In this document: positions 44,295 through 61,495 of the stretch, in pieces
Position numbering within the stretch: position 1 is the stretch's first letter
Layout: every line of letters starts with the position of its first letter
Source of the DNA: Candidatus Amesbacteria bacterium GW2011_GWC2_45_19
Lineage (GTDB): Bacteria; Patescibacteriota; Microgenomatia; CAZETR01; Amesbacteraceae
DNA: 61,706 bases
Assembly (NCBI GenBank): GCA_001001555.1
Contig: LCKS01000001.1
Coordinates: 18,360-80,065, forward strand
Direction: 5' to 3'
The notes under the pieces: model-generated
Database searches by the model: none
What the model was told of the DNA's origin: nothing
What the model saw: the letters and a program-made list of their open reading frames with translations, nothing else
Position numbers and translations under genes: made by a program

Positions 44295-44299
44295 AGCAC

Positions 44300-46927: not shown

Positions 46928-46930
46928 TCT

Positions 46931-46959
46931 ATCATTAGCAAATAAAATGCGATCGCATT
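46931..46959. repeat. 29-nt repeat ending in the AATGCGATCGCATT dyad (copy 2)
   Basis: atcattagcaaataaaatgcgatcgcatt compared with 47557-47585 atctttagcaaataaaatgcggtcgcatt: 27 of 29 positions are identical. Confidence 0.65.
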
Positions 46960-46980
46960 AAATATGCTAAACTTTATTCA

Positions 46981-47550
46981 GTGAATGCAAAAAAAGTTCG
47001 GGCCGGGATTAAAGCTCTTTTATCAGCCCTGAATACAAATTTTGACTGGATGTTGATTCCTTCAAGATCAGGAACGGTCAGGCGCATGCACACGATTCAT
47101 TACACCAGCTTCGAAGCAGAATTCAGCAAATTCTATCCTAGCAGCGTTTACGGGGGAATGAACACTTTGCGCCGTAGCGGCCTGGTTGAATTTCGGGAAA
47201 CTCCCCAGGGAACCGAAGTCCGGATTACCGACGCGGGCCGGACGCAAGTTCTTAAATATCAGTTAAGTAACTTACAAATCGAGCCGCAGAAAAAATGGGA
47301 TAAAAAATGGCGGTTAATATTTTTTGATGTGGAGGAAATGAATAGATCCAAACGGAACCGTTTTCGGGAACTGCTTTTGGGATTAGGACTCAAGCCCCTG
47401 CAGCGCAGTGTTTTTGTTTACCCATATCCTTGTTACAATGAAATGAAGTTCATCCGTGAAGTTATAGGAGTTCCGCACGGAGTTAAATTAGTAACGGCCG
47501 AAGAAATAGAAAACGATGAGGAATTAAGGGTCATCTTTAAACTCGATTAA
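46981..47550 (+). CDS. PaaX-like / wHTH transcriptional regulator with a Cas2-fold-like C-terminal domain
   Basis: 189 aa, GTG start. LRRSGLVEFRETPQGTEVRITDAG (wHTH), and KKWRLIFFDVEEMNRSKRNRFRELLLGLGLKPLQRSVFVYP. Confidence 0.45.
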   Translation: MNAKKVRAGIKALLSALNTNFDWMLIPSRSGTVRRMHTIHYTSFEAEFSKFYPSSVYGGMNTLRRSGLVEFRETPQGTEVRITDAGRTQVLKYQLSNLQIEPQKKWDKKWRLIFFDVEEMNRSKRNRFRELLLGLGLKPLQRSVFVYPYPCYNEMKFIREVIGVPHGVKLVTAEEIENDEELRVIFKLD

Positions 47551-47556
47551 CCATTT

Positions 47557-47585
47557 ATCTTTAGCAAATAAAATGCGGTCGCATT
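47557..47585. repeat. 29-nt repeat ending in the AATGCGGTCGCATT dyad (copy 3)
   Basis: See 46931-46959. The two copies bracket the regulator gene at 46981-47550. Confidence 0.65.
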
Positions 47586-47617
47586 TTAATTGTCAATATT
47601 GTTATTAAACTAAAGGA

Positions 47618-48865
47618 ATGATAAAGTTTTACCAAATGAAGTGGTGGGGAATTGCATTACTGCCTTTCTTTTTTTGTCCACTTAAAATTTATGCCTCGAT
47701 TGGAATAAATGAGTTTCAGGTCGAACCCTCGGGATCAAGTCAATGGATTGAACTTTATAACTCTGGACCTGATTCACAAGATATATCAGGTTGGTTTATT
47801 GACGATGATGGAGGTACAACAAAGTTCACAATTCCCACAAATACAGTATTAACCCCCAATGCTTGTATGTCGTTTCAAAGTGGCAGCTTTTTTTGGAATA
47901 CTGCTTCGGGCGACAAAGCTAGGTTGTTGTCTGGTGACACTATAATTGATGAATACCAATATTCTAGTAGTCCTGGAAATAATGTATCGTTTGGTAGATT
48001 ACCTGACGGAACTGGTGGCTGGACCACTTTCAGTAATCCAAGTAGAGACAAATTAAATAATACTAACACCTCTTGTTTATCTTTACCTACACCCTCACCA
48101 TCTTCAACTCCATTATCAACTCCCTTGCAAACACCAGCTGTTTCCCCGACTCCAACACCCAATGATTACTCAAATTTATCCATTTCAGAATATCTGCCAT
48201 ATCCAGATAGTGGAAATGAATGGGTAGAAATCTATAATGGGAATGATTCTGAAGTGAATTTGTATGGTTGGTTTGTCGATGATGTTGCTGATGGTGGTAG
48301 TGCACCGATAGGCATTTCTGGAACAATCAGCGCCAAAACTTATAAGCAATTTTATTTGTCCGACTCATTTCTTAATAATAGTGGAGACGATGTTCGATTG
48401 TTGAATGGTAGTAAAATTGAAAAAAACAAAACATCATTTTCTGCATCAACTAAAGCGAAATCCTGGTCAAAAGATAGTTCAGGCAACTGGTGTCAAATTG
48501 ATCCAACACCCAATTCCTCCAATCCTAGTTGCCCAACACTCACATCTGCCCCTTCGCCTTCGGCTTCGACAGGCACAAACACCCCCAAACCCAGCCCTAC
48601 TCCAAAATCTAGCTCGACCCCCACCTCTACTCCAACAGCCAAACCCTCTCCCACGCCAAGCATATCACCCCCTACCCTCCCCCCTCTTACTTTAAGAGGG
48701 GGGACCGAGGAGAGTGATATTAAGGAGACTCCGACCGTTCTCTCTTCTTCCACCCAACGCAACATCAATTTCCCAGCCATCGCCCTGATCGCCGTCGGCG
48801 GGATTGTCTTTATCGCCTCCGTAGGCCTTATAATCAGAGGGTATGTCCATCCGCCGCCGGATTAA
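47618..48865 (+). CDS. surface protein with two lamin-tail domains, Pro/Ser/Thr linkers and a C-terminal TM anchor
   Basis: 415 aa. INEFQVEPSGSSQWIELYNSG..ISGWFIDDDGG and ISEYLPYPDSGNEWVEIYNGN..LYGWFVDDVADGG (LTD signature). PTPSPSSTP-type linkers. C-terminal hydrophobic helix. Confidence 0.7.
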   Translation: MIKFYQMKWWGIALLPFFFCPLKIYASIGINEFQVEPSGSSQWIELYNSGPDSQDISGWFIDDDGGTTKFTIPTNTVLTPNACMSFQSGSFFWNTASGDKARLLSGDTIIDEYQYSSSPGNNVSFGRLPDGTGGWTTFSNPSRDKLNNTNTSCLSLPTPSPSSTPLSTPLQTPAVSPTPTPNDYSNLSISEYLPYPDSGNEWVEIYNGNDSEVNLYGWFVDDVADGGSAPIGISGTISAKTYKQFYLSDSFLNNSGDDVRLLNGSKIEKNKTSFSASTKAKSWSKDSSGNWCQIDPTPNSSNPSCPTLTSAPSPSASTGTNTPKPSPTPKSSSTPTSTPTAKPSPTPSISPPTLPPLTLRGGTEESDIKETPTVLSSSTQRNINFPAIALIAVGGIVFIASVGLIIRGYVHPPPD

Positions 48866-49223
48866 ACATTGGCTACCCACTCTGGCCTGGGCAATTCTCA
48901 TTTTCTCCTTTTCCTCTCAACCCACGCTCACCGCCAACCAAGTTTACTGGCAGGACTTCGTTATCAAAAAATCTGCCCACCTCTTCGTTTACGCTGTCCT
49001 GGCGATACTAATTTACCGCTCGCTCAAACTTACCTCCCGCTTTTCCAAATTATACTTATTCCTTTTCACTTTAATTCTAGTAGTCTTATACGCCGTTTCT
49101 GATGAATTCCATCAAACTTTCAGTCTCGGTCGCACTCCCACCCTGCGCGATGTCTTCATTGACATCGCCGGGGGTTTGACAGGACTTATAGTAAAGACTA
49201 AAATCGGCTCCAGTGCCCCTTAA
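48843..49223 (+). CDS. VanZ-family membrane protein
   Basis: 126 aa. Four TM helices and an SDEFHQ motif. Confidence 0.7.
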   Translation: MSIRRRIKHWLPTLAWAILIFSFSSQPTLTANQVYWQDFVIKKSAHLFVYAVLAILIYRSLKLTSRFSKLYLFLFTLILVVLYAVSDEFHQTFSLGRTPTLRDVFIDIAGGLTGLIVKTKIGSSAP

Positions 49224-52200
49224 GAAGCTTTTCAGCTTCCTGCTCTCCTTCCTCCTTCTTTTCCAAGGCAATGCTTCCTATCTGGTAGCTTTTGCCCAAG
49301 AAGCCACCGAATCTGCTACCCAAACCGTTGTTGAACCAACTCCAACCCCCACCCCTTCGTCCACCCCTGCCCCCGAGCCGACTTTGGACCCCAATCTTAT
49401 TCCGATTCCTGTCCCCACCCCTATCCCTGAATGGCAGACAATTGATGGCGTGGACATCACTACTAGCCCGATCACTGAAGGTCACGCATATCGATTCCGG
49501 GACACAGCAGTCACGGTGACTTTTACCAAAGTCACTCAGTCCGCCCCTCTCAGAATAAAAGAAGTCCAAGTTGGTGACGCCACGGGCTACGACATTACTT
49601 CAGACATGCCCGACGGGAGTTTTATATACGACTTGACACTTCCTAACCCTAATCCAAACCAAGAAGCCAAGGTCCAGTATTCTGAAGACGGCCAAACTTA
49701 TCAAGAATTGCCAGCGGAAGAACAAAACAACATTTTTGTTATCAAGAATCTGGACCATTTCACTATTTTTATAGTCCGCCCAGATACTCCAACAGATGAT
49801 GGTTCGTCTACTACTAATGATTCTTCCGGAGGAACGGTCTGTGTGGTAGGTTCCGGCTCAAACAATTGTTACCAAACTATCCAAGCTGCTGTAGACGCTG
49901 CGTCCGCTGGTGACCAGATTAAAGTAGCGGATGGAACATATTCGGATCCAGTCTCCATCGATAAACCTGGACTGACCATTTCTTGTTCCGGTACCGGCGC
50001 GGAAATCAATACTAATGGAGACATAGGCCTTTCTCTTCTGCCTGGCGCGGACAACACTACCATTGAAAACTGTTTAATTACCGGAAATGGTGACGGCATC
50101 AATTTAAACGGCGTGACCGGAACCACTATCCGCAATAATTCCATTACCGACAATTCCTACGTTACTAGTGGCATTTACATCATCGACTCTTCAAGTGTCA
50201 CCATTTCCAACAACACCATTTCCAACAACCAGATGGGGATAGACATTACTGAAACAGAAGAGGGAAATTCGTCAGATATTGTCATCAGCGGCAATATTTT
50301 TGATTCCAACAGTGATTACAATATTTTTAACAACTCTGTCAGTGAGGTAACAGCTACCGGCAATGACTGGATGACTACTGACGGCTCAATTGTCAAAGAA
50401 TATATTTACGATTACCTAGACGACGAATTTCTGGGCTTAGTTTCCTACGACACTACCGACCCAGTTGCCAACGCGGGACCTGACGTAGTAACTGGTTTGG
50501 AATTTGTCCAAGACGGATCGGGAAGCAGTGACGAGTACAAAATCGACACTTACTCCTGGTCCCAAACCTCCGGTCCCGGGACTGTCATTTTCGGATCGCC
50601 CGACTCCGATTCCACAACAATCTCAGCGGATATTGACGGTGATTACACCATTGAGTTAATAGTCACCGATTATCAGGGTAATTCCAACACTGATGAGTTT
50701 TTGCTAACATGGGACACAACCGCTCCGGTTTTAGCTGAAGTAACCCCTGTTTCTACGCCTACTAATAACCCCACCCCCGGCTATACGTTCAATTCCGATG
50801 AAAGCGGAAGTATTTCATATGGGGGATCCTGTTCCAGCGTTACAAGCTCTGCGGCCGCGGTAGATAATACGATAACATTCAACTTCCTGCCAGACGGGAC
50901 ATATTCAGACTGTACGATAACAGTTACTGATTCGGCTGGAAATCCAAGTGATCCTTTAAGCGTGAGTACTTTCACTGTTGATACTCAAGATCCTGTTTCT
51001 TCATTTAGTTCTCCTGCCGATGGCAGTTTTTGGAACGAGCCAATTGAAATTTCCGGAAGTTCGACTGATGTCCCAGATACAACTGTTGATTACGTTACTT
51101 TATCTTATTCCATCTCAGGAGAAGATGATTGGTATGAGATAACTGAAATCACAAACGACTCTTTAGACGAGCCTTTTAACTGGAATTATAATTGGGAGCC
51201 GGAAGATGGTGAGGACATCTACGATATCATGGCTGAGGCTACCGATACGGCGGGAAATACTGAATCAAGTCCAGTTGTGGAGGAAGTGACCTATGACGTT
51301 ACGGGGCCTTCCGTAACCGATATATCAATTTCTCCTGATCCTACCAATCATGCTCCATCAATCCTGGCATTGGCAGAAGATTTTTTGAGTATAATCGCTT
51401 CGGCGATTTTCCAAGTCGACGATTCGGACTTTAGCGATCCGTTGCCGCTCTCTGCCTTCGACGGTGACTTTGATTCTCTCTCTGAATATTTTTTTGCCGA
51501 CGAATATAACGGCATGCCTTATCCTGGTGAAGGACTTCATACCTTATATGTTGGAGCATATGATTTTGCGGGAAATTTCGGTTTTAACTTTGCCTCTTTT
51601 ACAGTAGACACATTCTCTCCGGAATCTTCTTTTAGTTCACCTGCAGAAGGAAGTATTTGGAGCTCATCAATCGATATATCAGGCTCATCCAACGATGAGA
51701 CAGAGGATACTGTTGATTATGTTCAACTTTTCTATAGAGAATCAGTAGGAGAGGATGAAGAAGAAAATGAATGGACAGAAATTGATACCGATTTCGAGAA
51801 TGGAGGTACGCAGCCCTTACAAAATACAGGAGGCGGCAATCCTTTTGAATGGAACTTTGATTGGACTCCTTCAAGCGATGGAACTTTTGACATAAAAGCT
51901 GAAGCGACTGATACGGCAGGCAACACCGAAACGAGTCCGGTGGTAGAAAACATAACGTATGATACTACCGCACCTACAACGCCAGTCGCCGACCCAGCGG
52001 CAGGTGATTATATGAGTGACCAATCGGTGACTTTGGCTAGTTCCGACAGCTTGAGCGGTGTGGATAAGATTTACTACACGACGGACGGCTCCACGCCGGA
52101 CAAGACTAAAACGGAATACACCGGTACCCCAATCACGGTAGACAAAGACATGACAATTAAAGCCATTGCCTACGACAAGGCCGGTAACGCTAGCGATGTT

Positions 52201-53082
52201 TTGGAAGCAGTTTATGGAATTGCGCCAAAAATATCAGCAGAAGCTTCCTCAGAGGTAACGTCAACATCTACAACCATCACTTGGACCACAGATGATCCTT
52301 CGACGTCTCGCGTGATTTATGATATGGTATCACACGGAGAACTTGGAGCCGCACCAAATTATGGTTACGCAAATTCGACAGTAGAGGATTCAACGAAAGT
52401 TACGGCCCACAGCGTAGATATAACCGGGCTGACAGCGGGGACCACTTATTATTACAGAACCATTTCCCACGGATCGCCGGAAGCGGTTAGTGAAGAAAAG
52501 AGCGTTACAACTACCTCCTCTTCCTCTTCTTCCAGTTCCAGCAGTAGTGGAGGAAGCGGAACGTCAGCAGCCAGCGCTCCTTCCTGCAACGATACCAAGC
52601 CTGGTAGCGCTCCGGTTCTTCTGTCTGCTGTCTCTGCAGGAGCCAATAGCGTCACCTTAACTTGGTCCAAGGCAACCAGCCCGGTGACCTATTATTTAAT
52701 AGCTTACGGCTTGGGAACGGGTCAGCAACAGTACGGAAATCCGAATGCGGGTGATTCTAATACCACGTCTTATACAGTTTCCGGCTTATCCGGAGGAACA
52801 ACGTATTACTTTAAAGTCAGGGCCGGTAATGGTTGCGCTCCTGGAGAATTCTCAAATGAGCTGTCGGTCAGACCTACCGGCGGTGTAGTTACCGCCGTTC
52901 CAGAGGGCTTTGCGGTAGGGGTTTTGGGAGAAAGTATTGAAGAAGTAAAAACCGTTGAACCTACCCCCTCTCCGGGAATCAAAGGGATTAGCACCCCCAA
53001 CTTCAATTGGTGGCTGATCATCATCCCCACCGCACTTTTGGGTCTCCTTATCTCTGGACTTCTGCTCCGACGTCGCACATAA
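49213..53082 (+). CDS. giant (1289 aa) surface protein: signal peptide, right-handed beta-helix, PKD/Ig-like modules, FN3 modules, poly-Ser linker, C-terminal TM plus RRRT tail
   Basis: Parallel beta-helix repeats (NTTIENCLITGNGDGINLNG..IRNNSITDN..ISNNTISNNQMGIDI). Two tandem Ig-like modules ending ..EATDTAGNTE(S/T)SPVVE. FN3 modules (TTYYYRT.., TTYYFKVRAGNGCAPGEFSNE). Tail WWLIIIPTALLGLLISGLLLRRRT. Confidence 0.75.
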   Translation: MPLKKLFSFLLSFLLLFQGNASYLVAFAQEATESATQTVVEPTPTPTPSSTPAPEPTLDPNLIPIPVPTPIPEWQTIDGVDITTSPITEGHAYRFRDTAVTVTFTKVTQSAPLRIKEVQVGDATGYDITSDMPDGSFIYDLTLPNPNPNQEAKVQYSEDGQTYQELPAEEQNNIFVIKNLDHFTIFIVRPDTPTDDGSSTTNDSSGGTVCVVGSGSNNCYQTIQAAVDAASAGDQIKVADGTYSDPVSIDKPGLTISCSGTGAEINTNGDIGLSLLPGADNTTIENCLITGNGDGINLNGVTGTTIRNNSITDNSYVTSGIYIIDSSSVTISNNTISNNQMGIDITETEEGNSSDIVISGNIFDSNSDYNIFNNSVSEVTATGNDWMTTDGSIVKEYIYDYLDDEFLGLVSYDTTDPVANAGPDVVTGLEFVQDGSGSSDEYKIDTYSWSQTSGPGTVIFGSPDSDSTTISADIDGDYTIELIVTDYQGNSNTDEFLLTWDTTAPVLAEVTPVSTPTNNPTPGYTFNSDESGSISYGGSCSSVTSSAAAVDNTITFNFLPDGTYSDCTITVTDSAGNPSDPLSVSTFTVDTQDPVSSFSSPADGSFWNEPIEISGSSTDVPDTTVDYVTLSYSISGEDDWYEITEITNDSLDEPFNWNYNWEPEDGEDIYDIMAEATDTAGNTESSPVVEEVTYDVTGPSVTDISISPDPTNHAPSILALAEDFLSIIASAIFQVDDSDFSDPLPLSAFDGDFDSLSEYFFADEYNGMPYPGEGLHTLYVGAYDFAGNFGFNFASFTVDTFSPESSFSSPAEGSIWSSSIDISGSSNDETEDTVDYVQLFYRESVGEDEEENEWTEIDTDFENGGTQPLQNTGGGNPFEWNFDWTPSSDGTFDIKAEATDTAGNTETSPVVENITYDTTAPTTPVADPAAGDYMSDQSVTLASSDSLSGVDKIYYTTDGSTPDKTKTEYTGTPITVDKDMTIKAIAYDKAGNASDVLEAVYGIAPKISAEASSEVTSTSTTITWTTDDPSTSRVIYDMVSHGELGAAPNYGYANSTVEDSTKVTAHSVDITGLTAGTTYYYRTISHGSPEAVSEEKSVTTTSSSSSSSSSSSGGSGTSAASAPSCNDTKPGSAPVLLSAVSAGANSVTLTWSKATSPVTYYLIAYGLGTGQQQYGNPNAGDSNTTSYTVSGLSGGTTYYFKVRAGNGCAPGEFSNELSVRPTGGVVTAVPEGFAVGVLGESIEEVKTVEPTPSPGIKGISTPNFNWWLIIIPTALLGLLISGLLLRRRT

Positions 53083-53091
53083 TAATCCTTG

Positions 53092-53271
53092 ATGTGGAAA
53101 TTCCTGCGCCATCTGTTTTTTCCTCACGAATCCAATAATCAGCGGGCCAAAATCTTGCATCCCTCCGGCCTGGCTTTAATAATCGGTATCTTCGTCGTCT
53201 TCCAACTAACCATTTTCTGTCCGGGTTCAGGGCAGATAAGGGGCAGCTTCACTTTTGGTAGGGTAATGTAG
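53092..53271 (+). pseudogene. displaced 5' fragment of a CAP-domain gene (paralogous to the start of 60644-61495)
   Basis: MWKFLRHLFFPHESNNQRAKILHPSGLALIIGIFVVFQLTI compares with MLKFLRHLFFPHDSNNQRAKFLHPSSLVVTIGLFIVFQVTINQLTI. It then diverges and stops. Confidence 0.7.
53098..53213 (+). repeat. left copy of a diverged direct repeat bracketing the island
   Basis: aaattcctgcgccatctgttttttcctcacgaatccaataatcagcgggccaa...tcttccaactaaccat aligns with 60650-60780. I count roughly four-fifths identity by eye. The right copy carries a 12-nt internal duplication. Confidence 0.75.
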
Positions 53272-53289
53272 TATAATCCCATAGTTAAT

Positions 53290-53313
53290 TAGCCCAAGAT
53301 GGGCTAGTTTTTT
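53290..53313 (+). promoter_or_regulatory. leader hairpin plus U-run directly before the ATG at 53317
   Basis: TATAAT at 53272-53277, then TAGCCCA-aga-TGGGCTA (53290-53306), GTTTTTT, act, ATG. No Shine-Dalgarno. Confidence 0.45.
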
Positions 53314-53316
53314 ACT

Positions 53317-54132
53317 ATGGGCAGAAAATTTTTTATTACATTTGTATTATTGCTTTTATCCTTTTTCCTCGCTCCACGACCGATATATGCTGTTAGCACT
53401 GAAACTTGTGAAGACAACAGTCCCACAGGCAAGCCGGTGCTCACTTCAGCCGTACCAGGAAAAGATAGTGTCACACTAACCTGGACAGAAGCTCAAGATC
53501 CAGTAACCCATTATCTTATTGCTTATGGTAGATCAGAAACAGAAATAGAGTATGGTAATCCGAATGTAGGAGGAAGAAGAACCACTACCTATACAGTTGG
53601 CGAGCTCACAAAAGGAGTGAAATATTATTTTAAGGTACGTCCTATAAACGGTTGTAGACCAGGTGATTTTTCAAATAAACTTCCTGCAACTCCCGGTGTT
53701 ATTGTTAAATCTGGTGTTACTAGGGGAAGAGTTGCAAATATACCCAATTTATCAATTTATAAACCAGTACTTGGAGCAAGTGTATCAGCAACATCTTCAG
53801 CAAAGGTGGAGGTAAAAACACTAGCTCCTTCAGCTATAACCGTCGCCAAATGTACAATGTGTATAAGTTGGCAATTATTAATTACAGAAGCAATACTTTT
53901 GATCTTGTTTTTCTATCTTGCAGAGAAAAATACTTTCTTAAAGCCAATTTTTTCCATAGCGATTCCAACCGTAATATATATTTTGTTTTGGGAGATTAAC
54001 CAAGCATGTCCGCAAAATGGATTTGCCTGTAAATATTTCCTTCCACTTGAAGTAATCATCTTTATAGTTATTGAAATTGCTTACAAAAACATAAGCTATA
54101 AAACAAAGGAAAGAAAGAATAACTTATGTTGA
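53317..54132 (+). CDS. signal-peptide FN3-module protein with a multi-TM C-terminal region
   Basis: 271 aa. The FN3 module CEDNSPTGKPVL..VTLTW..HYLIAYG..YYFKVRPINGCRPGDFSN is paralogous to modules at about 52576-52880 and about 59676-59960. The C-terminal half has 2-3 TM helices. It overlaps the synthase start. Confidence 0.65.
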   Translation: MGRKFFITFVLLLLSFFLAPRPIYAVSTETCEDNSPTGKPVLTSAVPGKDSVTLTWTEAQDPVTHYLIAYGRSETEIEYGNPNVGGRRTTTYTVGELTKGVKYYFKVRPINGCRPGDFSNKLPATPGVIVKSGVTRGRVANIPNLSIYKPVLGASVSATSSAKVEVKTLAPSAITVAKCTMCISWQLLITEAILLILFFYLAEKNTFLKPIFSIAIPTVIYILFWEINQACPQNGFACKYFLPLEVIIFIVIEIAYKNISYKTKERKNNLC

Positions 54133-57038
54133 ATACAATAATCAATAATGTTGGGTTTATCTTTAACAGTGCCGCCTTTTATTCTCAGCAATATTTTGAT
54201 AGATACTCATTTTTAGTTCCTCTTGGAGTAATCGGAATATGGCGATGGTCTGTCTGGATGATAAAAGAGGTTATTGGGCTTCATTACCGTCCTAAAACAA
54301 AGGAATATAATGCAAAAGTCTCCTTGGTGATTCCTGTCTATAATGAGAATCCGCAAGTATTTACACAAGCTCTTAACTCGTGGAAGAAAAATAATCCATC
54401 AGAGATAATTGCGGTAATTGACTATACGGATTTGACGTGCATTGAAATTTTTAAGAAATTTAAAGAGACCTTTTCGGGTGCTAAACTTATTATTACTAAA
54501 ACTCCCGGGAAACGGCCGGCTTTAGCAGATGGGATTAAAGTTGCAAAAAGTGAAATTGTAGCCTTGGTTGACAGTGATACAATTTGGGATGATAATGTTT
54601 CAAGAAATGGTCTTCCCCCTTTTGTTGATCCTAAAGTGGCAGGGGTTGCTACATACCAAAGCGTTTTGCAGCCTAAAACTTTTGCACAAAAAGTTTTTGA
54701 TATACAGCTTGATTTGAGATATAGACATGAGTATCCATTCTTAGCCGCTTCGGGAGATGCTCTTGTTTGCCTCTCTGGGAGAACGGCATTTTACAGGCGT
54801 GAAGTTATTACTCCCATGCTTTCTGATTTAGTAAATGAGAAGTTCATGGGAGTACCGGTTATTAGCGGTGATGATAAAAGATTGACATACCTTGTGCTCG
54901 CAGCAGGATGGAAGGTTGCTTATCAAAGTACATCTCACGTTTATACGCCTGGGATGGCAGAACTGGGTGCATACCTTAAACAAAGACTGCGTTGGACAAG
55001 AAACAGTCTTCGTGCTGATTTGTCAGCAATCTTTAACGGATGGCCTATTCGGCATCCCGCTCTTCTCTTTTTTCAAATTGATAAGTTCCTTCAGGGCTTT
55101 GTGGTAATTTTAAGCCCCATTTATTTCTTTGTATCGATCTATCTTCATCTATGGATAGCTGCGTTCGCAATTTTTTGTTGGTGGTTTATCAGTAGAACTA
55201 TAAAGTTGTATTATCCCCACCTTTCTTATAAGCCCAAAAATATTGTTATTTTACCCGGATATGTGCTCTATACATTTCTTGCCGGGATACTTAAAATTTA
55301 TGCACTTTTTACACTCAATACTCAAGGCTGGATAACACGCTGGGATAAATCAAGGTTACCTCAGTTTAGATTACTTCTAGCGGCCCCTTCCTATCTTGCT
55401 ACTTTATCAGTTGTCTTGTTTCTTACATATGGAGTTTATATTTATAAAGAACACACATATTTAATTCCAAAATCACAAAGAGAACAATTGCTGGCAAGTG
55501 CTTTGCCCAGTATTCAAGCAGATGTTATTGCAAGTAGCGCAGTTTTAGGAGAATCAACATTAGCCCAAAAGGAGTTGTTTACTAATCGCTATGAAGCAAA
55601 AGGAAACGAAAATTTTATCGAGATATCCAATAAATTCGGAGTTGATGTAAACCAATTATATTATGCAAATATGGCCAAAGCACCAAATAGAAATATTACA
55701 CCAGGGACAATTTTATCAATCCCAGGAAAAGATATTCAACTACAACCAAATACTTCTCTTACCAAACTAACATATTCGACTAACCCTATAACCGTCCAAC
55801 ATGATAAAAAAACAAATACTCTTCTGGTTACAGGAAGGGGTAGGCAGATAACTCTAAAAGATATTGTGAGCAATGGAGGGAAGAGTTATTTAGAAGAAAT
55901 TTCATCAAAAATCTGGCTTGCAAAAGCTACAATTTTTCTTTCGGACGGTATTACTTTGAGGCTTGACAAAAACGAAGTAGAATGGCTTAAACTCGAGAGT
56001 AATAAAAAAGGATTTGTAATGCTTCGTTCTCTAAATAGCGACATTATTATTAACGGAGTAAAAATAACTTCTTGGGATACCGAAAACAATGATTACGATA
56101 AAGAACTCAAGGATGGAAGAAGTTTTATTATGGTAAAGGATAATTCAAGAATGGATATTTATTCATCCGAGCTTTCTTATTTAGGTTATCCAACTTCGTC
56201 AGATATTGCCGCATCTCCTTACGGTGTTTCTTGGAAGCTAAGTAACCTCAAGTTAAAAAAAGAACTTCTTACTGGAGAAGTTATCAACAGTAAATTCCAC
56301 CATAATTATTTTGGTGCTTACACTTATGGGGCAACTGGTATGCTGTGGAAGGGAAATGAATTTTATGAAAATGTAAGGTATGGGCTTGACCCCCATGATG
56401 ATTCCAATGGTTTTTTGGTGGAAGATAACATTGCCAGAGATAATGGTTCGCATGGTATTATTTTTTCGAAACGCAGCATGTACAATACGGTTCGTAATAA
56501 TATCTCCTACAATAATAAATTGCACGGGATAATGCTTCATGAAAAATCTGACTTTAATATAATTGAAAATAACACCGTAACCGGCAATACAAGCGGAATT
56601 GCCCTCTATCGTTCAAGTAACAACATTGTTCGCAACAACACCATAGCAAACAATAGACATGGAGTAAGGGCAAATGCAGGTTCAGAGGGTAACATTGTGC
56701 AGAATAACAGCATAACGGGAAGTGGATTATATGGAATTTATTTCTATGATAAGGCGAATAACAATTCTGTTTCAAATAATACATTTGAATATAACGACGT
56801 AGGAATTTATATTAAATCAGACTCAAATAATATTAGTAAGAATTCTTTAATAAATAATGCTGTTGGAGTTTACTTCCAAGATCAAGCTTCGAACAATGTC
56901 TTAGCTGACAATCAAATTAAGCAAAGCGGTATTTATGGAATTTATACAAAAGTTGCCAACGAAGTGAGCAATATTCTTGGGGTCAACGATTTATATAGAA
57001 ATCGTAAAGATGTGGCAGGGATGAACGAAGCAGATTAA
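54126..57038 (+). CDS. processive GT2 polysaccharide synthase (Alg8/HasA/NodC-like) fused to LysM and a right-handed beta-helix, C5-epimerase-like (AlgG-like) domain
   Basis: 970 aa. LVIPVYNE, VDSDT, SGDDKRLT, QRLRW (54981-54995). Several TM helices. LysM module (IEISNKFGVDVNQLYYAN...GTILSIPG). Beta-helix repeats (NNISYNNKLHGIMLH..IENNTVTGNTSGIAL..VRNNTIANNRHGV..) with a DPHD motif (56388-56399). Confidence 0.7.
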   Translation: MLNTIINNVGFIFNSAAFYSQQYFDRYSFLVPLGVIGIWRWSVWMIKEVIGLHYRPKTKEYNAKVSLVIPVYNENPQVFTQALNSWKKNNPSEIIAVIDYTDLTCIEIFKKFKETFSGAKLIITKTPGKRPALADGIKVAKSEIVALVDSDTIWDDNVSRNGLPPFVDPKVAGVATYQSVLQPKTFAQKVFDIQLDLRYRHEYPFLAASGDALVCLSGRTAFYRREVITPMLSDLVNEKFMGVPVISGDDKRLTYLVLAAGWKVAYQSTSHVYTPGMAELGAYLKQRLRWTRNSLRADLSAIFNGWPIRHPALLFFQIDKFLQGFVVILSPIYFFVSIYLHLWIAAFAIFCWWFISRTIKLYYPHLSYKPKNIVILPGYVLYTFLAGILKIYALFTLNTQGWITRWDKSRLPQFRLLLAAPSYLATLSVVLFLTYGVYIYKEHTYLIPKSQREQLLASALPSIQADVIASSAVLGESTLAQKELFTNRYEAKGNENFIEISNKFGVDVNQLYYANMAKAPNRNITPGTILSIPGKDIQLQPNTSLTKLTYSTNPITVQHDKKTNTLLVTGRGRQITLKDIVSNGGKSYLEEISSKIWLAKATIFLSDGITLRLDKNEVEWLKLESNKKGFVMLRSLNSDIIINGVKITSWDTENNDYDKELKDGRSFIMVKDNSRMDIYSSELSYLGYPTSSDIAASPYGVSWKLSNLKLKKELLTGEVINSKFHHNYFGAYTYGATGMLWKGNEFYENVRYGLDPHDDSNGFLVEDNIARDNGSHGIIFSKRSMYNTVRNNISYNNKLHGIMLHEKSDFNIIENNTVTGNTSGIALYRSSNNIVRNNTIANNRHGVRANAGSEGNIVQNNSITGSGLYGIYFYDKANNNSVSNNTFEYNDVGIYIKSDSNNISKNSLINNAVGVYFQDQASNNVLADNQIKQSGIYGIYTKVANEVSNILGVNDLYRNRKDVAGMNEAD

Positions 57039-57130
57039 ATGATACTTGCACCTTTTTTAAAAAAGTGTAACATACCATAACATACATCTTCATCTAGCTG
57101 CCCCAGGGTGAATTTCTAAGAGGAAATAAT

Positions 57131-58042
57131 ATGATAAAACCATCAATTTGTATTGTAGGTCCTGGAATTGTTGGGCAAGCAACGGGGAAAGTTTTGGTAG
57201 AAAAGGGAGTAAGGGTGGGTTTTTTGGGAATTGTAAAAGAACAAATTGAAAAATTAAAAAAAGAGAGTTACAACGCATTTACAAAGGATGAGATTCTTAA
57301 CGGGAGTTATGATTTTGACATAACAATGTTTACTGTCCCGACTTTCACAGTGAATGGAAGAATTGACCTAAGTATCCTTGAACAAGCATCGGTGGATTTG
57401 GGAAAGCGCCTTAAACACTTCAGGAAATATCATTTAGTTGTAGTTAAAAGCACTGTTCTCCCGGGCACAACAGAAGATCTTGTTATTCCTACAATAGAGA
57501 AATACTCAGGTAAAAAGGTCGGAAAAGACTTCGGTGCGTGCATGAACCCCGAATACCTTCGACAAGAAACTTCTTATAACGATACCCTAAATCCCTGGAT
57601 AATTTTAATTGGAGAATACGATAGGAAATCCGGTGACAGGCTTGAATTGATATATAAAAATAAATTCGATTGTCCATTGTTCAGGTGCGAAATTAAAGAG
57701 GCCGAAATGCAAAAATATATCCACAATATTTTTAATGCAACAAAAATTACCTACTTCAACGAAATGCGTCAAATTGCAAATAACCTGTGTATCAATGCCG
57801 ATAAAATCTTCAAATATTCCGCGATAAGTTGTGAAGGAATGTGGAACCCAAACTATGGAATAAAGAACAAGGGACCATTTGACGGGAGCTGTCTTCCGAA
57901 AGACATACAGGCGTTTTGTTTTTGGGCACAAACCAGTGGGTTTAACGCGTCTTTATTAAAAACAGTTATTGATGTAAACAATAAACTTGCTAGCAAGCTA
58001 GGTCTTCACGAATTCAGCTTCAAAAGCAGAGATATCTTATAA
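57131..58042 (+). CDS. UDP-glucose/GDP-mannose 6-dehydrogenase-family enzyme, short form (303 aa)
   Basis: ICIVGPGIVGQATG Rossmann motif, VVKSTVLPGTT, MNPEYLRQE, and catalytic-Cys motif DGSCLPKD. It ends before the usual C-terminal nucleotide-sugar-binding domain. Confidence 0.7.
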   Translation: MIKPSICIVGPGIVGQATGKVLVEKGVRVGFLGIVKEQIEKLKKESYNAFTKDEILNGSYDFDITMFTVPTFTVNGRIDLSILEQASVDLGKRLKHFRKYHLVVVKSTVLPGTTEDLVIPTIEKYSGKKVGKDFGACMNPEYLRQETSYNDTLNPWIILIGEYDRKSGDRLELIYKNKFDCPLFRCEIKEAEMQKYIHNIFNATKITYFNEMRQIANNLCINADKIFKYSAISCEGMWNPNYGIKNKGPFDGSCLPKDIQAFCFWAQTSGFNASLLKTVIDVNNKLASKLGLHEFSFKSRDIL

Positions 58043-58069
58043 AGGTATAATTTGCTTATCTAGCCCGCA

Positions 58070-58963
58070 ATGCGTTATAAAATTAAGGTAATGAATACTG
58101 AGCAACCCCCGGACAATTTATTGAAAGGGCATAAAATTCCTTTGTGGCTCATGGCATCTATTTTGCTGATTTTTATAGCCATAATTATTCGTTTTATTTC
58201 CCCAAAAGTATATTTGGAGACTAATACAAATGTGGTCGATACAAATTCTACCAAGAAACCAGCGCCCTCATTACTACCTACTGAAGTTATCTACCCCTCA
58301 CAAGTACTCAATCTCACTAATTGGAAAATAACAATCCCAACTATTACTTCCGGAGATGCAATAGAAATAAAACAGCCGCGATTGGCAACTTACAACCTTA
58401 ATCCTTGGTTTACAGTTTTGCCAGAAGAAAACGCAGTACGTTTTAGGGCTGCGGTGAATGGTGCAACGACAAGCGGTTCAGGTTATCCCCGCTCAGAGCT
58501 TAGAGAAATGGTCGACAATGGCAAGACAAATGCGAGCTGGCCCTCGAATGAAGGAACACATACTATGTTTTTAGACCAAGCAATCACTGCTGTACCAAAA
58601 ACCAAACAAGATGTAGTAGCGGGGCAAATTCACGATAACAACAAAGACATTATTGTGGTGCGACTTAATTATCCCACTCTTCACGTCAGGATTGATAGAA
58701 CAAACGTCTATACATTAGATTCTAACTATACGCTTGGAAAAAGATTTACTGTTAAGTTTGTAGTTAGCGATGGTTTGACCAAAGTCTATTACAACAACGG
58801 TATTGATCCTGTATATACTCTTAACAAAAGATATTCAGACGCTTATTTCAAAACAGGTGTTTACACTCAGTCAAATTGTAGTAAGGAAGGTTCTCCCTCT
58901 CTCTGTAATGACAACAACTATGGTGAAGTCATTGTTTATCAAGCAGCGGTCACGCATCAGTAA
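58070..58963 (+). CDS. membrane-anchored polysaccharide lyase family 7 (alginate/polyuronate lyase)
   Basis: 297 aa. N-terminal TM helix. The three PL7 signature blocks are present: YPRSELRE, AGQIHD, AYFKTGVYTQS. Confidence 0.75.
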   Translation: MRYKIKVMNTEQPPDNLLKGHKIPLWLMASILLIFIAIIIRFISPKVYLETNTNVVDTNSTKKPAPSLLPTEVIYPSQVLNLTNWKITIPTITSGDAIEIKQPRLATYNLNPWFTVLPEENAVRFRAAVNGATTSGSGYPRSELREMVDNGKTNASWPSNEGTHTMFLDQAITAVPKTKQDVVAGQIHDNNKDIIVVRLNYPTLHVRIDRTNVYTLDSNYTLGKRFTVKFVVSDGLTKVYYNNGIDPVYTLNKRYSDAYFKTGVYTQSNCSKEGSPSLCNDNNYGEVIVYQAAVTHQ

Positions 58964-58984
58964 TTACCAATAACAACGAAACAA

Positions 58985-59013
58985 TTGACAAATTAAAAAC
59001 CGTACAATATAAT
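58985..59013 (+). promoter_or_regulatory. consensus sigma70 promoter
   Basis: TTGACA (58985-58990), exactly 17 nt, TATAAT (59008-59013). Confidence 0.7.
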
Positions 59014-59018
59014 GCCTC

Positions 59019-59052
59019 AATTAACTGCCCTAAGGGCAGTTAATTGTTTTTA
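59019..59052 (+). promoter_or_regulatory. 12-bp perfect leader hairpin plus U-run directly before the ATG at 59056
   Basis: AATTAACTGCCC-taa-GGGCAGTTAATT (59019-59045), then GTTTTTA, tac, ATG. It starts about 6 nt after the -10, so it would be 5'-terminal on the mRNA. No Shine-Dalgarno. Confidence 0.5.
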
Positions 59053-59055
59053 TAC

Positions 59056-60096
59056 ATGAAAAAATTATTGACGGCTTTATTCTTAATAGTTTTTGCGGCA
59101 GGTTTACTCTTTATAAAACTCTCCCCTACTCTTGTAAAAGCAGATACAGGAGCGCCCGTAACAATAACAGCTACATACAATTCAAGTACAGGACAATTAA
59201 ATGCTTCAGGCTCCTATGCTTGGGAGGAATGTGAACCCGGCGAAGAGACAAACATTCTAGGATTTGCCCTTTTTATAAATGGCGGAACTCCTGCCATTAA
59301 TGATAGTAATGCTTTAGATGGATCCTCAATGCACCTTGCAAATAGTGGAAATCCTTGCACAACAACACCCGATAATTGGGTAGACAATAATCATGTTTTA
59401 TCTTCTGCCCCCGCAAATGTTTGTGTTGTTGTTTATGATGTAAGAGTTGACGATTCGGCGGATCCAGGAGGTATTCATTCTTTAATCGGAGCAGGCGGGG
59501 ATTATAATACAGATAATTCTTGGAATTTCAATGGCAGCTCTTATCTGGAAGGGTCTTGTACTGCTCCAGAAGTTATAACACCGACAGAAACACCCACGCC
59601 TGCTCCTACTCCAACACCCACGCCGACACTCTCATTGAGTAATGGTCCAATTGGTGGCTCTAATGGAGGCGGATCAACTCAATGTACCGATGCTAAACCG
59701 GGAATACCGGGATTACTTTCTGTAAACAAGAATAGCTCCTCTACTGCCGTTTTGGCTTGGTCACTAGTTTCGTCTGCCACAGATTACTCTATCCTATATG
59801 GTCTATCTTCTGGAAACTATATCTACGGAGTGCCAAGGACAGGGAATACTGATCACTACACTGTTGGCAGTTTGAATCCTGGTGTCAATTACTACTTTGC
59901 CGTAAAGGCTGTAAATGGGTGCACTCCCGGAGATCCTTCAAATGAGAGATCCACAGGATCAGATAGAGGCCAAGTGTTGGGAGCTTCAACTATGGCTGCC
60001 ACTGGAATTGCAGATCAGCTGGTAATGGTAACGGTGTTAGTAATGGGAGTATTGATAACAGTAAGATCGGGGTATGCGTACGCGAAGGCAAAGTAG
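59056..60096 (+). CDS. secreted protein: unknown Cys-containing N-domain, PT linker, FN3 module, C-terminal TM plus basic tail
   Basis: Start moved to MKKLLTALFLIVF. TPTETPTPAPTPTPTPT linker. FN3 module CTDAKPG..VLAW..YSILYG..YYFAVKAVNGCTPGDPSN. Tail VLGASTMAATGIADQLVMVTVLVMGVLITVRSGYAYAKAK. Confidence 0.65.
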   Translation: MKKLLTALFLIVFAAGLLFIKLSPTLVKADTGAPVTITATYNSSTGQLNASGSYAWEECEPGEETNILGFALFINGGTPAINDSNALDGSSMHLANSGNPCTTTPDNWVDNNHVLSSAPANVCVVVYDVRVDDSADPGGIHSLIGAGGDYNTDNSWNFNGSSYLEGSCTAPEVITPTETPTPAPTPTPTPTLSLSNGPIGGSNGGGSTQCTDAKPGIPGLLSVNKNSSSTAVLAWSLVSSATDYSILYGLSSGNYIYGVPRTGNTDHYTVGSLNPGVNYYFAVKAVNGCTPGDPSNERSTGSDRGQVLGASTMAATGIADQLVMVTVLVMGVLITVRSGYAYAKAK

Positions 60097-60634
60097 GCAC
60101 CTGGTAAGAATGGCAGTGGGGATAGTAATTGTGGTGTTTTCGATTTGGTATCTAGGTTACAGCCAGGGAGTTTTATCATTTAAAACTACACCTCGGGAAA
60201 CTGTAAAAACAGTAAGGTCAAGTCCGCCAGCAGAATTAAAAATACCTAATGCTAAAATAGATTTAAGACTAGACGGAGGTATAATTGAGAACGGAATTTG
60301 GCAAATTTCAGCTAAGGGTGGGTCGTATCTGGTCACAGGGGCTTATCCGGGTGAGGGGGGGAACATAATAATTTATGGACATAACAAATGGAATATTTTG
60401 GGTAGACTAAAGACTGTCACAAAAGGCCAGGCGATAATATTGGTAACTCAGGAGGGAAAAGAGCATAAATATCAAGTAGAAAATGTAATGGTGGTGAGTC
60501 CAAATGAAATAGAAGTAGTTGAACCAAGAAATAATGAGATATTAACAATCTATACGTGTACGGGGTTTTTGGACAGGTTGCGATTTGTGGTAGTAGCCAC
60601 CCCCATTGACTCTGAAATACAAAAGCCGCAATAA
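60074..60634 (+). CDS. sortase-family transpeptidase
   Basis: 186 aa. TM anchor. Catalytic His (NIIIYGHN), Cys (LTIYTCTG) and Arg (RLRFVVVA) in canonical order. Confidence 0.8.
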   Translation: MRTRRQSRHLVRMAVGIVIVVFSIWYLGYSQGVLSFKTTPRETVKTVRSSPPAELKIPNAKIDLRLDGGIIENGIWQISAKGGSYLVTGAYPGEGGNIIIYGHNKWNILGRLKTVTKGQAIILVTQEGKEHKYQVENVMVVSPNEIEVVEPRNNEILTIYTCTGFLDRLRFVVVATPIDSEIQKPQ

Positions 60635-60643
60635 TGGGTAGTA

Positions 60644-61495
60644 ATGCTCAAATTCCTGCGCCACCTGTTTTTTCCTCACGACTCCAATAATCAGCGGGCC
60701 AAGTTTCTTCATCCTTCATCCCTGGTTGTGACCATCGGTCTTTTTATCGTCTTCCAAGTAACCATCAACCAACTAACCATCAACTACCCGCAAATATTAG
60801 GTTACGCTTCCCAGATATCCCCCGAAGAAATAATTCGCTTGACCAATATTCAACGCACATCCTCTGGCCTATCTGAAGTCGAACTGAATTCTCAACTTTC
60901 CGCCGCCGCCGCCCAAAAAGCCGCAGATATGATTGCCCGTGATTATTGGGCTCATGTCTCGCCCGTAGGCACCCAGCCCTGGAACTTTATTACCCAGGCC
61001 GGCTACTCTTACCGCTATGCCGGTGAAAACCTGGCCCGGGATTTTTCCGACGCCAAATCCGTCGTCGACGCTTGGGTAGCTTCTCCTTCGCACCGGGAAA
61101 ATCTGCTCAATTCCCGGTATCAGGACATTGGAATAGCTGTTATCGATGGCCAACTTGAAGGCCGGGAGACCACTCTGGTGGTGCAATTTTTTGGCGCTAA
61201 ATTATCTGCCGCCCCCAGCGTGAGTTCAGTTTCTACTTCCATTGTCAAACCGGTCTCCGCCGCCACCTCTCCGTCTACTATGAACTATGAACCAAGAACT
61301 ATTTCTCCCTTTGATGTGACGAAGGCCGTTTCTCTGACACTGCTCATCATTTTTGTGACCGTTTTAGTTATCGACCTGGTAGCTGTGTATCAAAAGAAGA
61401 TCACCCGCTGGACCAGTAAAAGTTTTGCTCATCTGTTATTTATGTTAGCCTTATTAATAGCCGCCTTTATTATTTCCAAAGGCCAAATACTATGA
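60644..61495 (+). CDS. CAP/SCP/PR-1-like (YkwD-type) domain protein with N- and C-terminal TM helices
   Basis: 283 aa. LSAAAAQKAADMIARDYWAH...YAGENLA...VDAWVASPSHRENLL...IGIAV. Confidence 0.75.
   Translation: MLKFLRHLFFPHDSNNQRAKFLHPSSLVVTIGLFIVFQVTINQLTINYPQILGYASQISPEEIIRLTNIQRTSSGLSEVELNSQLSAAAAQKAADMIARDYWAHVSPVGTQPWNFITQAGYSYRYAGENLARDFSDAKSVVDAWVASPSHRENLLNSRYQDIGIAVIDGQLEGRETTLVVQFFGAKLSAAPSVSSVSTSIVKPVSAATSPSTMNYEPRTISPFDVTKAVSLTLLIIFVTVLVIDLVAVYQKKITRWTSKSFAHLLFMLALLIAAFIISKGQIL
60650..60780 (+). repeat. right copy of the direct repeat bracketing the island
   Basis: See 53098-53213. Confidence 0.75.

Follow-up and report, generated by a model that had tools for sequence, protein, structure and literature searches.

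Genetic composition of the locus

We analyzed a stretch of 61.7 kb (hereafter the window) from the genome of a small uncultured groundwater bacterium of the Microgenomates group. All genes and features discussed here are located on the plus strand. A single sortase gene and a single tail of the [LMYF]AxTG type were found within the window. Since 61.7 kb of the genome are visible, further sortases or substrates may lie elsewhere in it.

The sortase gene (60074-60634) encodes a protein of 186 aa. Directly upstream, and overlapping it as described in the first-pass annotation (here by 23 nt, 60074 versus 60096), lies the gene of the predicted cognate substrate (59056-60096; 346 aa). The sortase gene is followed by a gene for a CAP/YkwD-like protein (60644-61495; Pfam CAP) with two C-terminal transmembrane (TM) segments. 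The 5' end of this CAP gene is duplicated in truncated form at 53098-53213, which repeats 60650-60765 in direct orientation (116 nt, 82% identity). The product of the ORF at 53089-53271 is similar to the N-terminus of the 60644 protein. A polysaccharide cassette of low GC content (54126-58963; GC3 0.30-0.36) is composed of a GT2 + LysM + AlgG-like beta-helix fusion, a short NDP-sugar dehydrogenase and an alginate-lyase-2 protein. A homologous cassette (49% and 55% identity) was found in a related locus (L034) beside its own substrate-sortase pair.

The sortase had been proposed to be island-borne. The low-GC3 block from 53317 to 60634, flanked by the duplicated CAP 5' end, is compatible with this. 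However, the gene order substrate-sortase-CAP is a conserved synteny in relatives, the CAP gene following the sortase gene directly in at least 5 loci and lying nearby in at least 10. Thus, the sortase is not just cargo of foreign origin.

Three proteins of the window share an Fn3 module (Pfam fn3 matches at residues 1132-1219 of a giant protein of 1289 aa, 48-122 of the 53317 protein and 222-302 of the 59056 protein). Pairwise identities among the modules were 46% and 39%. The motifs C...D..P, W, Y.I.YG, YYF.V and NGC.PG..SN, among others, were invariant in the alignment. This bears out the earlier observation that the three proteins have in common an Fn3 module, with its conserved Cys pair, and VLG(A/E)S after it.

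The C-terminal part of the giant protein (52576-53082) consists of the Fn3 module with its Cys pair (52585-52860), the sequence EGFAVGVLGES (52903-52935; VLGES 52921-52935), a linker, a TM segment (53008-53067; WWLIII...LLL) and a terminal RRRT, with the tail peptide EGFAVGVLGESIEE. In the 53317 protein (53317-54132; 271 aa) a signal peptide and the Fn3 module are followed by VLGAS (53767-53781) and then by three hydrophobic segments in which Cys residues are conserved. The fourth protein considered is a lamin-tail-domain (LTD) protein (47618-48865; 415 aa; Pfam LTD 7e-28), in which TVLSSS (48734-48751) precedes a TM segment (FPAIAL...LII) and RGYVHPPPD.

Identity and class of the sortase

The 60074 protein matched Pfam PF04203 with 70.9 bits (cut-off 26.6). 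Its N-terminal TM helix comprises residues 10-29 (helix 3-32 in the AlphaFold2 (AF2) model). The catalytic residues His103 (YGHN), Cys162 (YTCTG) and Arg170 were invariant in 33 homologs. The AF2 model (pLDDT 90.4) displays the beta-barrel sortase fold with an N-terminal membrane anchor. A Foldseek search with this model yielded 104 PDB matches at E ≤ 0.001; the top 50 listed were all sortases, and solved sortases were matched at E about 1e-9. Domain, catalytic residues and fold with anchor place the protein in the sortase superfamily (Pfam PF04203, peptidase C60).

No class cut-off of the NCBIfam models was reached. The best scores were obtained for class D (NF033746 and NF058671, 41.9 and 42.9 bits versus cut-offs of 165 and 140); class C (NF033745) gave 35.1 bits versus 160 and class E (NF033747) 33.3 bits versus 160. 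When the family profile was compared with PDB sequences, the best matches were again of class D (4d70, Clostridium perfringens SrtD, 63 bits; 2kw8, Bacillus anthracis SrtD, 56 bits). Judged by these sequence scores, the closest relatives of the enzyme are class D sortases. A conserved 'S-Y/H-L' is found 18 residues before the catalytic His of the family. In class E sortases a conserved Tyr of the beta3/beta4 loop belongs to the S3 subsite (PMC5148588). In an HMM alignment to C. perfringens SrtD the Leu is opposite F92 and the Tyr adjacent, which leaves the position of the class E Tyr ambiguous.

Many class C sortases were among the top Foldseek matches and the substrate carries Ig-like (Fn3) domains as pilins do, so that the enzyme might be a pilus-type (class C-like) polymerase that builds a fibre from units of the 59056 protein and does not anchor them to the wall. 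We regard this as highly improbable. Class A and class E structures scored equally in Foldseek, the best PDB sequence matches and the NCBIfam scores speak against class C as given above, and by sequence inspection a DP-aromatic lid segment is absent between the TM helix and the first strand. In related loci, moreover, the sortase is usually accompanied by a single adjacent substrate and no pilin gene set.

Homologs were found in Woesebacteria, Levybacteria, Roizmanbacteria, Curtissbacteria, Gottesmanbacteria and Beckwithbacteria. In the explanation that we consider best, the 60074 product is a membrane-anchored sortase of a Microgenomates-specific clade.

The predicted sorting signal of the 59056 protein

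The 59056 protein starts with a signal peptide (MKKLLTALFLIVFAAGLLFIKL). Its tail contains QVLGAST (59971-59991; here named VLG box), which abuts on its upstream side the pentapeptide MAATG (59992-60006), the predicted LAxTG-type recognition and cleavage site. After four residues a hydrophobic stretch of 15 residues follows, and the protein ends with RSGYAYAKAK; the hydrophobic segment LVMVTVLVMGVLITV and the basic tail together span 60019-60093. The tail peptide around the predicted cleavage after Thr is QVLGASTMAATGIADQ. The protein thus combines a signal peptide with the tripartite layout of a TG-ending pentapeptide, a hydrophobic segment within about 10 residues and a basic tail. As noted before, LPXTG is absent from the proteins of the locus. 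NCBIfam sorting-domain models gave no family for the 59056 tail at E ≤ 10.

The tails encoded beside homologous sortases were surveyed in 80 Microgenomates genome loci. A neighbour was defined as a gene on the same strand ending -150 to +300 nt from the sortase start, and was present in 72 of the 80 loci. With a strict algorithm ([LMFYIV][AG]x[TA]G, 1-9 residues before a C-terminal TM segment with basic tail) the complete tail was found in 65 of 72 neighbours and by inspection in about 70; these counts were obtained from related genomes and lack phylogenetic independence. Among the other genes of the same loci it was found in 13 of 1055. Eleven of these 13 were genuine further tails of the same kind, including LPATG and LPGTG variants that likewise have VLG upstream.

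Frequencies in the 64 unique tails were L.69, M.12, Y.09 and F.05 at position 1 of the pentapeptide, A.91 and G.09 at position 2, and T.92 and A.08 at position 4, with G invariable (1.0) at position 5. The sequence [LMYF][AG]x[TA]G is thus a near-universal element beside these sortases, 1-9 residues before the TM segment. MAATG, which had been pointed out as the closest match to the class E motif LAXTG, sits exactly where the neighbours carry this pentapeptide; the signal is therefore LAxTG-like. On the basis of these tail comparisons MAATG is most likely the cutting site of the 59056 protein.

Among homologs of the 59056 protein in a set of 5.8 billion proteins nearly all end with QVLGAST, 0-3 aa, [LMF]AxTG, TM segment and basic tail, and this ending was also present in homologs lacking the Fn3 module. 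The sequence QVLGASTMAATG was identical in L010, P0171, P0172 and P0174.

Distribution and possible role of the VLG box

VLG occurs beyond chance. The background rate of [VI]LG[AESTV] in genes of the related loci was 0.47 per 1000 residues. Within the 60 residues before the TM segment the box was enriched 20-fold in signal-bearing proteins (p = 1e-30), which bears out its description as a non-random, conserved element of the signal region, and it was enriched 4-fold before the TM segment of anchored proteins without the pentapeptide (odds ratio 4, p = 8e-5). Of the 64 unique tails, 40 have the box no more than 12 residues ahead of the pentapeptide and 24 lack it there; two or more copies were found in 21. 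Synonymous variation of the VLG codons shows that selection is on the protein sequence.

The first-pass annotation had taken VLG(A/E)S itself as the sorting signal, in which case the 60074 sortase would act on the giant, the 53317 and the 59056 protein and possibly on the LTD protein as well. The presence of VLG in all three Fn3 proteins and its enrichment before anchors even without a pentapeptide are in line with this. So are some neighbours in related loci: giant-like proteins with VLG and no pentapeptide adjoin substrate-sortase pairs in L017 (tail SNVLGASINKNRY before the TM segment) and L032, and in L003 the protein beside the sortase combines two VLG boxes with a multi-TM domain and lacks the pentapeptide. 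Nevertheless, the element shared by about 70 of 72 neighbours is xAxTG with its invariant G and not VLG, which 24 of the 64 unique tails lack within 12 residues. Furthermore, we know of no sortase that cuts a motif without a scissile pair of the T/A-G/A/N type. We consider it very unlikely that VLG(A/E)S is the recognition motif. What can be retained from the proposal is a sortase and substrate pair with a non-LPXTG tripartite signal.

In homologs of the Fn3 module the VLG motif has a fixed position, and the giant family provides a structural explanation for it. Of the 28 giant-module homologs that have GVLG, 23 carry it 25-27 residues downstream of NGCxPG. In the AF2 model of the giant protein the pLDDT was above 96 up to module residue 110 and 83 over GFAVGVLG, where a beta-bridge is formed; the linker (pLDDT 59-68) and a TM helix follow. 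In this family VLG is located 30-45 residues from the TM segment and precedes four different types of anchor, including non-TM amphipathic ends. Model and alignment accordingly place the VLG of the giant family within the C-terminal extension of the Fn3 module, whichever anchor comes after. This distance, the fixed spacing from the Fn3 core and the modelled position inside the fold all argue against a sorting signal.

The tail of the 53317 protein is not of the tripartite sortase type. A TM helix with basic tail, previously ascribed to three of the four proteins as the layout of sortase substrates, was found in the giant, 59056 and LTD proteins; the 53317 protein ends in its three hydrophobic segments. 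The multi-TM Cys-rich domain is kept in the orthologs P0147, P0149, P0151 and P0153. Three of these four replace VLG at that position (RTEDVS or RDEDVS in P0147, P0151 and P0153), and ILGAT is present only in P0149; P0153 carries VLGTST further downstream. TVLSSS of the LTD protein is present as reported, and its equivalence to the VLG box is based on one ortholog (L010), which has DVLGST at a similar place.

A pentapeptide of the cognate type was absent within about 10 residues of the C-terminal TM segment in the giant, 53317 and LTD proteins, and from all 48 homologs of the module of the giant protein. The idea that all three or four proteins are sortase substrates could thus not be upheld. 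Most likely, the giant, 53317 and LTD proteins are simply anchored in the membrane and are not sortase substrates.

Alternatively, the VLG box could be an independent junction or processing motif at the border between the ectodomain and exchangeable anchor modules of Microgenomates surface proteins, in substrates and non-substrates alike. It might serve a different protease as its site, act as a mark for glycosylation or for a chaperone, or be an exosite of the sortase. The same box is indeed found before LAxTG signals, single TM segments, amphipathic C-termini and multi-TM Cys-rich domains and, in proteins that lack Fn3, also behind low-complexity linkers. The tandem copies, the spacing of 0-3 residues to the pentapeptide in 59056 homologs and the selection at the protein level fit as well. 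However, no candidate enzyme was identified, the Fn3 family offers the structural explanation given above, and the recurrence may in part reflect common ancestry of the tails. We think such a role unlikely. For the 59056 protein itself, QVLGAST is probably a conserved accessory box that extends the recognition surface.

Proposed mechanism and comparison with known systems

Taken together, we think it likely that the 60074 sortase processes the 59056 protein at MAATG with the VLG box as an accessory element, and that the giant, 53317 and LTD proteins stay anchored in the membrane. The signal peptide would export the 59056 protein, and its C-terminal helix and basic tail would hold it in the membrane. 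By analogy to the general sortase mechanism, Cys162 would most likely attack the T-G bond of MAATG, and the protein would then be passed to a cell-wall amine as the presumed acceptor. The Fn3 module and/or VLG box of the giant, 53317 and LTD proteins would reflect common descent; these proteins are predicted to be retained in the membrane by a single TM segment or three TM segments, without sortase processing.

Class D sortases are closest by sequence, with NCBIfam scores far below the cut-offs. Class D signals are LPxTA- or LPQTGS-like, whereas the tails found here have Ala at position 2 and an invariant last Gly. With the canonical LPXTG systems of Gram-positive bacteria the locus shares the signal peptide, the TG-ending pentapeptide, the hydrophobic stretch, the basic tail and the vicinity of substrate and sortase genes. 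It differs in the lack of Pro, the extra upstream box and the lack of an NCBIfam sorting-domain match.

The class E enzymes SrtE1 and SrtE2 of Streptomyces coelicolor act on LAXTG substrates, the chaplins (Kattke et al. 2016, PMC5148588). Common features are the tripartite signal with Ala instead of Pro at position 2 (here 91% A and 9% G), a substrate motif of the LAXTG kind in the neighbour tails and as MAATG in the window, and a single membrane-anchored sortase of the housekeeping type. SrtE of T. fusca was among the best structural matches (24% identity, rmsd about 3 Å). In contrast to class E, the NCBIfam class E score is low, the host belongs to the Patescibacteria/Microgenomates and not to the Actinobacteria, M, Y and F are tolerated at position 1, and a VLGA(S/T)T box precedes the pentapeptide.

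A sortase family, fam000526, was described as 'near ubiquitous in Microgenomates' in the sortase passages of Meheust et al. (2019, PMC6744442). It probably represents the same enzyme clade as the 60074 sortase. These passages give presence and distribution, and no sorting signal or substrates.

Implications for Microgenomates surface proteins

We found no published description of the sorting signal or the substrates of a Microgenomates sortase. The neighbour tails provide a usable definition of such a signal: [V-L-G-A-S/T-T]-[L/M/Y/F]-A-x-T-G followed by a TM segment and a basic tail. The view of the locus is corrected as well, as most likely not every Fn3 or VLG protein in it is a substrate. 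The compact sortase of 186 residues, with Ala at position 2 of its motif and a possibly extended recognition sequence, could be of interest for protein-ligation work.

There is some chance, if a small one, that VLGA(S/T)T is a short linear motif in its own right, marking the junction of ectodomain and anchor in Microgenomates surface proteins. If so, it would be read either as a sortase exosite, resulting in a bipartite signal of 12 residues, or by another processing enzyme. Proteins with VLG only, such as the giant protein, would then also be processed or sorted in a manner undescribed for any sortase system. With the signal definition given above, the wall-anchored surface proteins of these ultra-small and probably episymbiotic bacteria could be listed, and with them candidates for host attachment.

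Genetic composition of the sortase locus

The genes described here were located on the plus strand. The genes for FtsE, FtsX and an M23 peptidase (44255-46927) are followed by those for a lamin-tail-domain (LTD) protein (47618-48865) and a small VanZ-like membrane protein (48843-49223). This order (44255-49223), upstream of a substrate-sortase pair, recurs in three loci with homologous sortases (L008, L010 and L066), so that the sortase locus adjoins a cell-division/wall-hydrolase module. The next gene (49213-53082) encodes a giant protein of 1289 aa with beta-helix, PKD/Big, CHB_HEX_C and two Fn3-like domains. Downstream of an ORF of 60 codons left over from the 5' end of a CAP gene (53089-53271) lies an Fn3 protein of 271 aa (53317-54132; here named 53317 protein). 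A second Fn3 protein of 346 aa (59056-60096; 59056 protein) precedes the sortase (60074-60634) and a CAP/YkwD-like protein (60644-61495).

Between the two Fn3 genes an alginate-like polysaccharide cassette (54126-58963) was found. It consists of a 970-aa fusion of GT2 synthase, LysM and AlgG-like C5-epimerase beta-helix (54126-57038), a short NDP-sugar dehydrogenase (57131-58042) of 303 aa without a C-terminal domain match and an alginate-lyase-2 protein (58070-58963). In locus L034 a GT2-epimerase fusion (49% identity) and a dehydrogenase (312 aa, 55% identity) are present beside its own substrate-sortase pair. The CAP/YkwD-like secreted domain protein, which has two C-terminal TM segments, is conserved downstream of the sortase in L003, L007, L010, L026, L042, L064 and others.

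The first-pass annotation had described the sortase as island-borne. A 116-nt direct repeat of the CAP gene 5' end with 82% identity (53098-53213 and 60650-60765) brackets positions 53214-60649, a block of 7.5 kb. The truncated copy lies 7 nt past the stop codon of the giant gene, and the block ends at the full CAP gene. All six genes between the two repeat copies had a GC3 of 0.25-0.36 (substrate 0.31, sortase 0.35), compared to values of 0.44 (giant gene) and 0.51 (full CAP gene) outside. This pattern fits an integration by recombination at a CAP gene. However, the synteny of substrate, sortase and CAP gene is conserved in relatives (e.g. L007, L010, L042, L064), as is the wider arrangement from FtsEX onward (L008, L010, L066). 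A reading of the sortase as simple core synteny was not clear-cut either, since the GC3 of substrate and sortase matches the low-GC cassette and not the flanks. No island-free variant was found among 8 contigs with an identical sortase, which all showed the same gene order. Weighing repeat and GC3 against the conserved synteny, we consider an island origin plausible.

Affiliation of the sortase

The sortase matched Pfam PF04203 with 70.9 bits, and its catalytic residues His103, Cys162 and Arg170 were invariant among 33 homologs. The AlphaFold model (pLDDT 90.4) placed a beta-barrel after an N-terminal helix. An assignment to a class based on the fold was rejected, because the model matched solved class A, C, D and E sortases about equally in Foldseek (E about 1e-9). 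By sequence (family profile) the class D enzymes SrtD of C. perfringens (63 bits) and B. anthracis (56 bits) were nearest. All NCBIfam class models remained far under their cut-offs, the best with 42-43 bits versus 140-165 and class E with 33 versus 160, which argues for an unclassified, CPR-typical clade as judged from the sequence. The credibly labelled homologs all came from Woesebacteria, Levybacteria, Roizmanbacteria, Curtissbacteria, Gottesmanbacteria, Beckwithbacteria and similar groups. The window itself is part of a Patescibacteria genome of the Microgenomates type.

The predicted pentapeptide signal

At 80 genome loci encoding sortase homologs we inspected the same-strand gene immediately upstream. 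Such a neighbour was present for 72 sortase genes, typically with an overlap of 16-60 nt; the overlap already noticed between the 59056 gene and the sortase start amounts to 23 nt. A strict algorithm, searching for [LMFYIV][AG]x[TA]G with its end no more than about 10 residues ahead of a hydrophobic segment at the C-terminus that carries a short tail, was positive for 65 of the 72 neighbours versus 13 of 1055 other genes of the same loci. Five further neighbours were positive by inspection. MAGTG or MAGAG was seen in this way next to the sortases of L037b, L038, L043b and L047, and the L033 neighbour (8841-9911) contained a complete VLGASTLASTG-TM-KKR inside an ORF continuing for ~80 residues more, suggesting that the frame was shifted, the assembly is wrong or a stop codon has been lost. 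The L020 neighbour carried a degenerate TASAG, and only that of L003 truly lacked a pentapeptide.

Among 64 unique tails, position 1 was occupied by L (.69), M (.12), Y (.09) or F (.05), position 2 by A (.91) or G (.09), position 3 by any residue, position 4 by T (.92) or A (.08) and position 5 always by G (1.00). Of the 13 other positive genes, eleven encoded extra tails of the same kind, two of these being large proteins with LPATG and LPGTG. Close to sortases, L038 (3430-8100, 1556 aa) encodes QVLGAST-ELPGTG and L031 (76-1938, 620 aa) QVLGIST-VLPATG, so that loci of the same clade also hold Pro-containing pentapeptides after the VLG box described below.

As the first-pass annotation had pointed out, LPXTG is absent, and the 59056 protein carries MAATG (59992-60006; wild-type signal region QVLGASTMAATGIADQ). 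This motif sits exactly at the pentapeptide position of the neighbour tails. The extended string QVLGASTMAATG was identical in L010 and in the homologous proteins P0171, P0172 and P0174. In a collection of 5.8 billion proteins nearly all homologs of the 59056 protein end with QVLGAST-(0-3 residues)-[LMF]AxTG-TM-basic, including Fn3-less homologs that resemble it in the N-terminal domain alone. With phmmer, the 52-residue tail, a query too short, gave 0 matches at E <= 0.001 against 1.84 billion representatives. The window contains one sortase and one tail of this type. Together with the neighbour-tail consensus and the position of MAATG, this points to a cognate signal that is LAxTG-like, as in class E systems, and the 59056 protein is the predicted sortase substrate.

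The VLG box as part of the signal region

The Fn3 modules of the giant, 53317 and 59056 proteins are indeed paralogous, with 46% and 39% identity to the copy of the giant protein. The invariants of their alignment include Cys...Asp..Pro, Trp, Tyr-x-Ile-x-Tyr-Gly, Tyr-Tyr-Phe and Asn-Gly-Cys-x-Pro-Gly. Each module is followed by VLG(A/E)S (VLGES 52921-52935, VLGAS 53767-53781, QVLGAST 59971-59991), which had been proposed as a non-canonical sorting signal.

In 40 of the 64 unique tails a VLG box was located at most 12 residues upstream of the pentapeptide, and 21 of the 64 had at least two copies. In signal-bearing proteins, [VI]LG[AESTV] was 20-fold enriched over the stretch of 60 residues ahead of the TM (9.3 vs 0.47 per 1000 residues, p = 1e-30). 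The ectodomains ahead of the box were unrelated, and low-complexity linkers occurred as well. In other subclades its place was taken by similar strings, among them VAGIS(A/T) and IVQSA. At 105 VLG sites the Leu and Gly codons varied synonymously, close to background usage, indicating that the constraint acts on the peptide. A nucleotide-level cause, with TTA-GGA-GC as AGGAG-like Shine-Dalgarno sequence before the ATG of MAATG, was rejected for this reason and also because most tails carry Leu rather than Met. VLGA(S/T)T thus proved, by sequence comparison, to belong genuinely to the signal region, but the cognate signal itself appears to be the LAxTG-like pentapeptide. A VLGA(S/T)T box upstream of the pentapeptide, often duplicated, is not known to have a counterpart in other sortase systems.

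VLG motifs without pentapeptide

The giant, 59056 and LTD proteins end with the hydrophobic helix and basic tail described before; the 53317 protein (peptide YKPVLGASVSATS) has three hydrophobic segments instead. The pentapeptide is absent from the giant, 53317 and LTD proteins. Nor did any of the 48 homologs nearest to the module of the giant protein (mostly 200-290 aa) contain it. [VI]LG after the Fn3 core was found in 28 of them, 25-27 residues past NGCxPG in 23 of these 28 (consensus GF-x-x-GVLG). In the model of the giant C-terminus (tail peptide EGFAVGVLGESIEEVK) the VLG stretch is still modelled with confidence; the pLDDT falls from 97 to 83 over it, with a beta-bridge Ala113-Val114, and is ~60 in the linker beyond. 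A sub-threshold PGF-CTERM match (E = 0.054), the only one of its TM to NCBIfam sorting-domain models, was regarded as noise.

What follows VLG in the module homologs is a single TM with a basic tail, the amphipathic C-terminus FFxxLxxFFxxLFxR or, as in the 53317 protein, a Cys-rich multi-TM domain. The conserved amphipathic end, which stands in place of a TM helix in many short Fn3-module homologs (P0113, P0122, P0127, P0129, P0131, P0133, P0135-P0139, P0141, P0144, P0150), may represent a distinct and hitherto undescribed tail for association with the membrane or surface. A conserved three-helix membrane domain after Fn3/VLG was found at 53860-54084, in P0147, P0149, P0151, P0153, P0128 and P0148, and in L003 (8848-9996), where such a protein is encoded just ahead of the sortase, in the place normally taken by the LAxTG substrate. 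Its cysteines are paired, with C-x2-C ahead of the first helix and C-x6-C between helices.

VLG was still 4-fold enriched in anchored proteins without pentapeptide (p = 8e-5), and in L003 the protein next to the sortase carries two VLG boxes ahead of the multi-TM domain. Three of four named 53317-type orthologs (P0147, P0151, P0153) lacked VLG at its position after the Fn3 module. VLG might be an independent junction or processing motif, which we consider unlikely. That VLG alone is the signal is, beside the nearly constant pentapeptide of the sortase neighbours, less probable still. We rather favor, with good but not full confidence, that the 59056 protein is cut at MAATG and that the giant, 53317 and LTD proteins are non-cleaved membrane-anchored surface proteins having modules in common with sortase substrates.

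Proposed mechanism and relation to known systems

The 59056 protein would be exported by Sec and retained by its TM and basic tail. Cys162 would then attack the Thr-Gly bond of MAATG, with QVLGAST supporting recognition, and the protein would be transferred to a peptidoglycan amine.

Class E sortase systems use LAXTG signals (PMC5148588). Read from its sequence, the enzyme would similarly work as a housekeeping sortase with LAXTG substrates; a pilus-polymerising enzyme is very improbable. It differs from class E and class D in that it misses the sequence thresholds of both and belongs to a different phylum.

Curated sorting-domain models (NCBIfam), run on three tails, do not match the 59056 tail or detect its signal, and in the literature on sortase/LAXTG in CPR, Patescibacteria and Microgenomates we found no description of the signal of these sortases. 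The presence of sortases in Microgenomates is already known from an earlier publication (PMC6744442).
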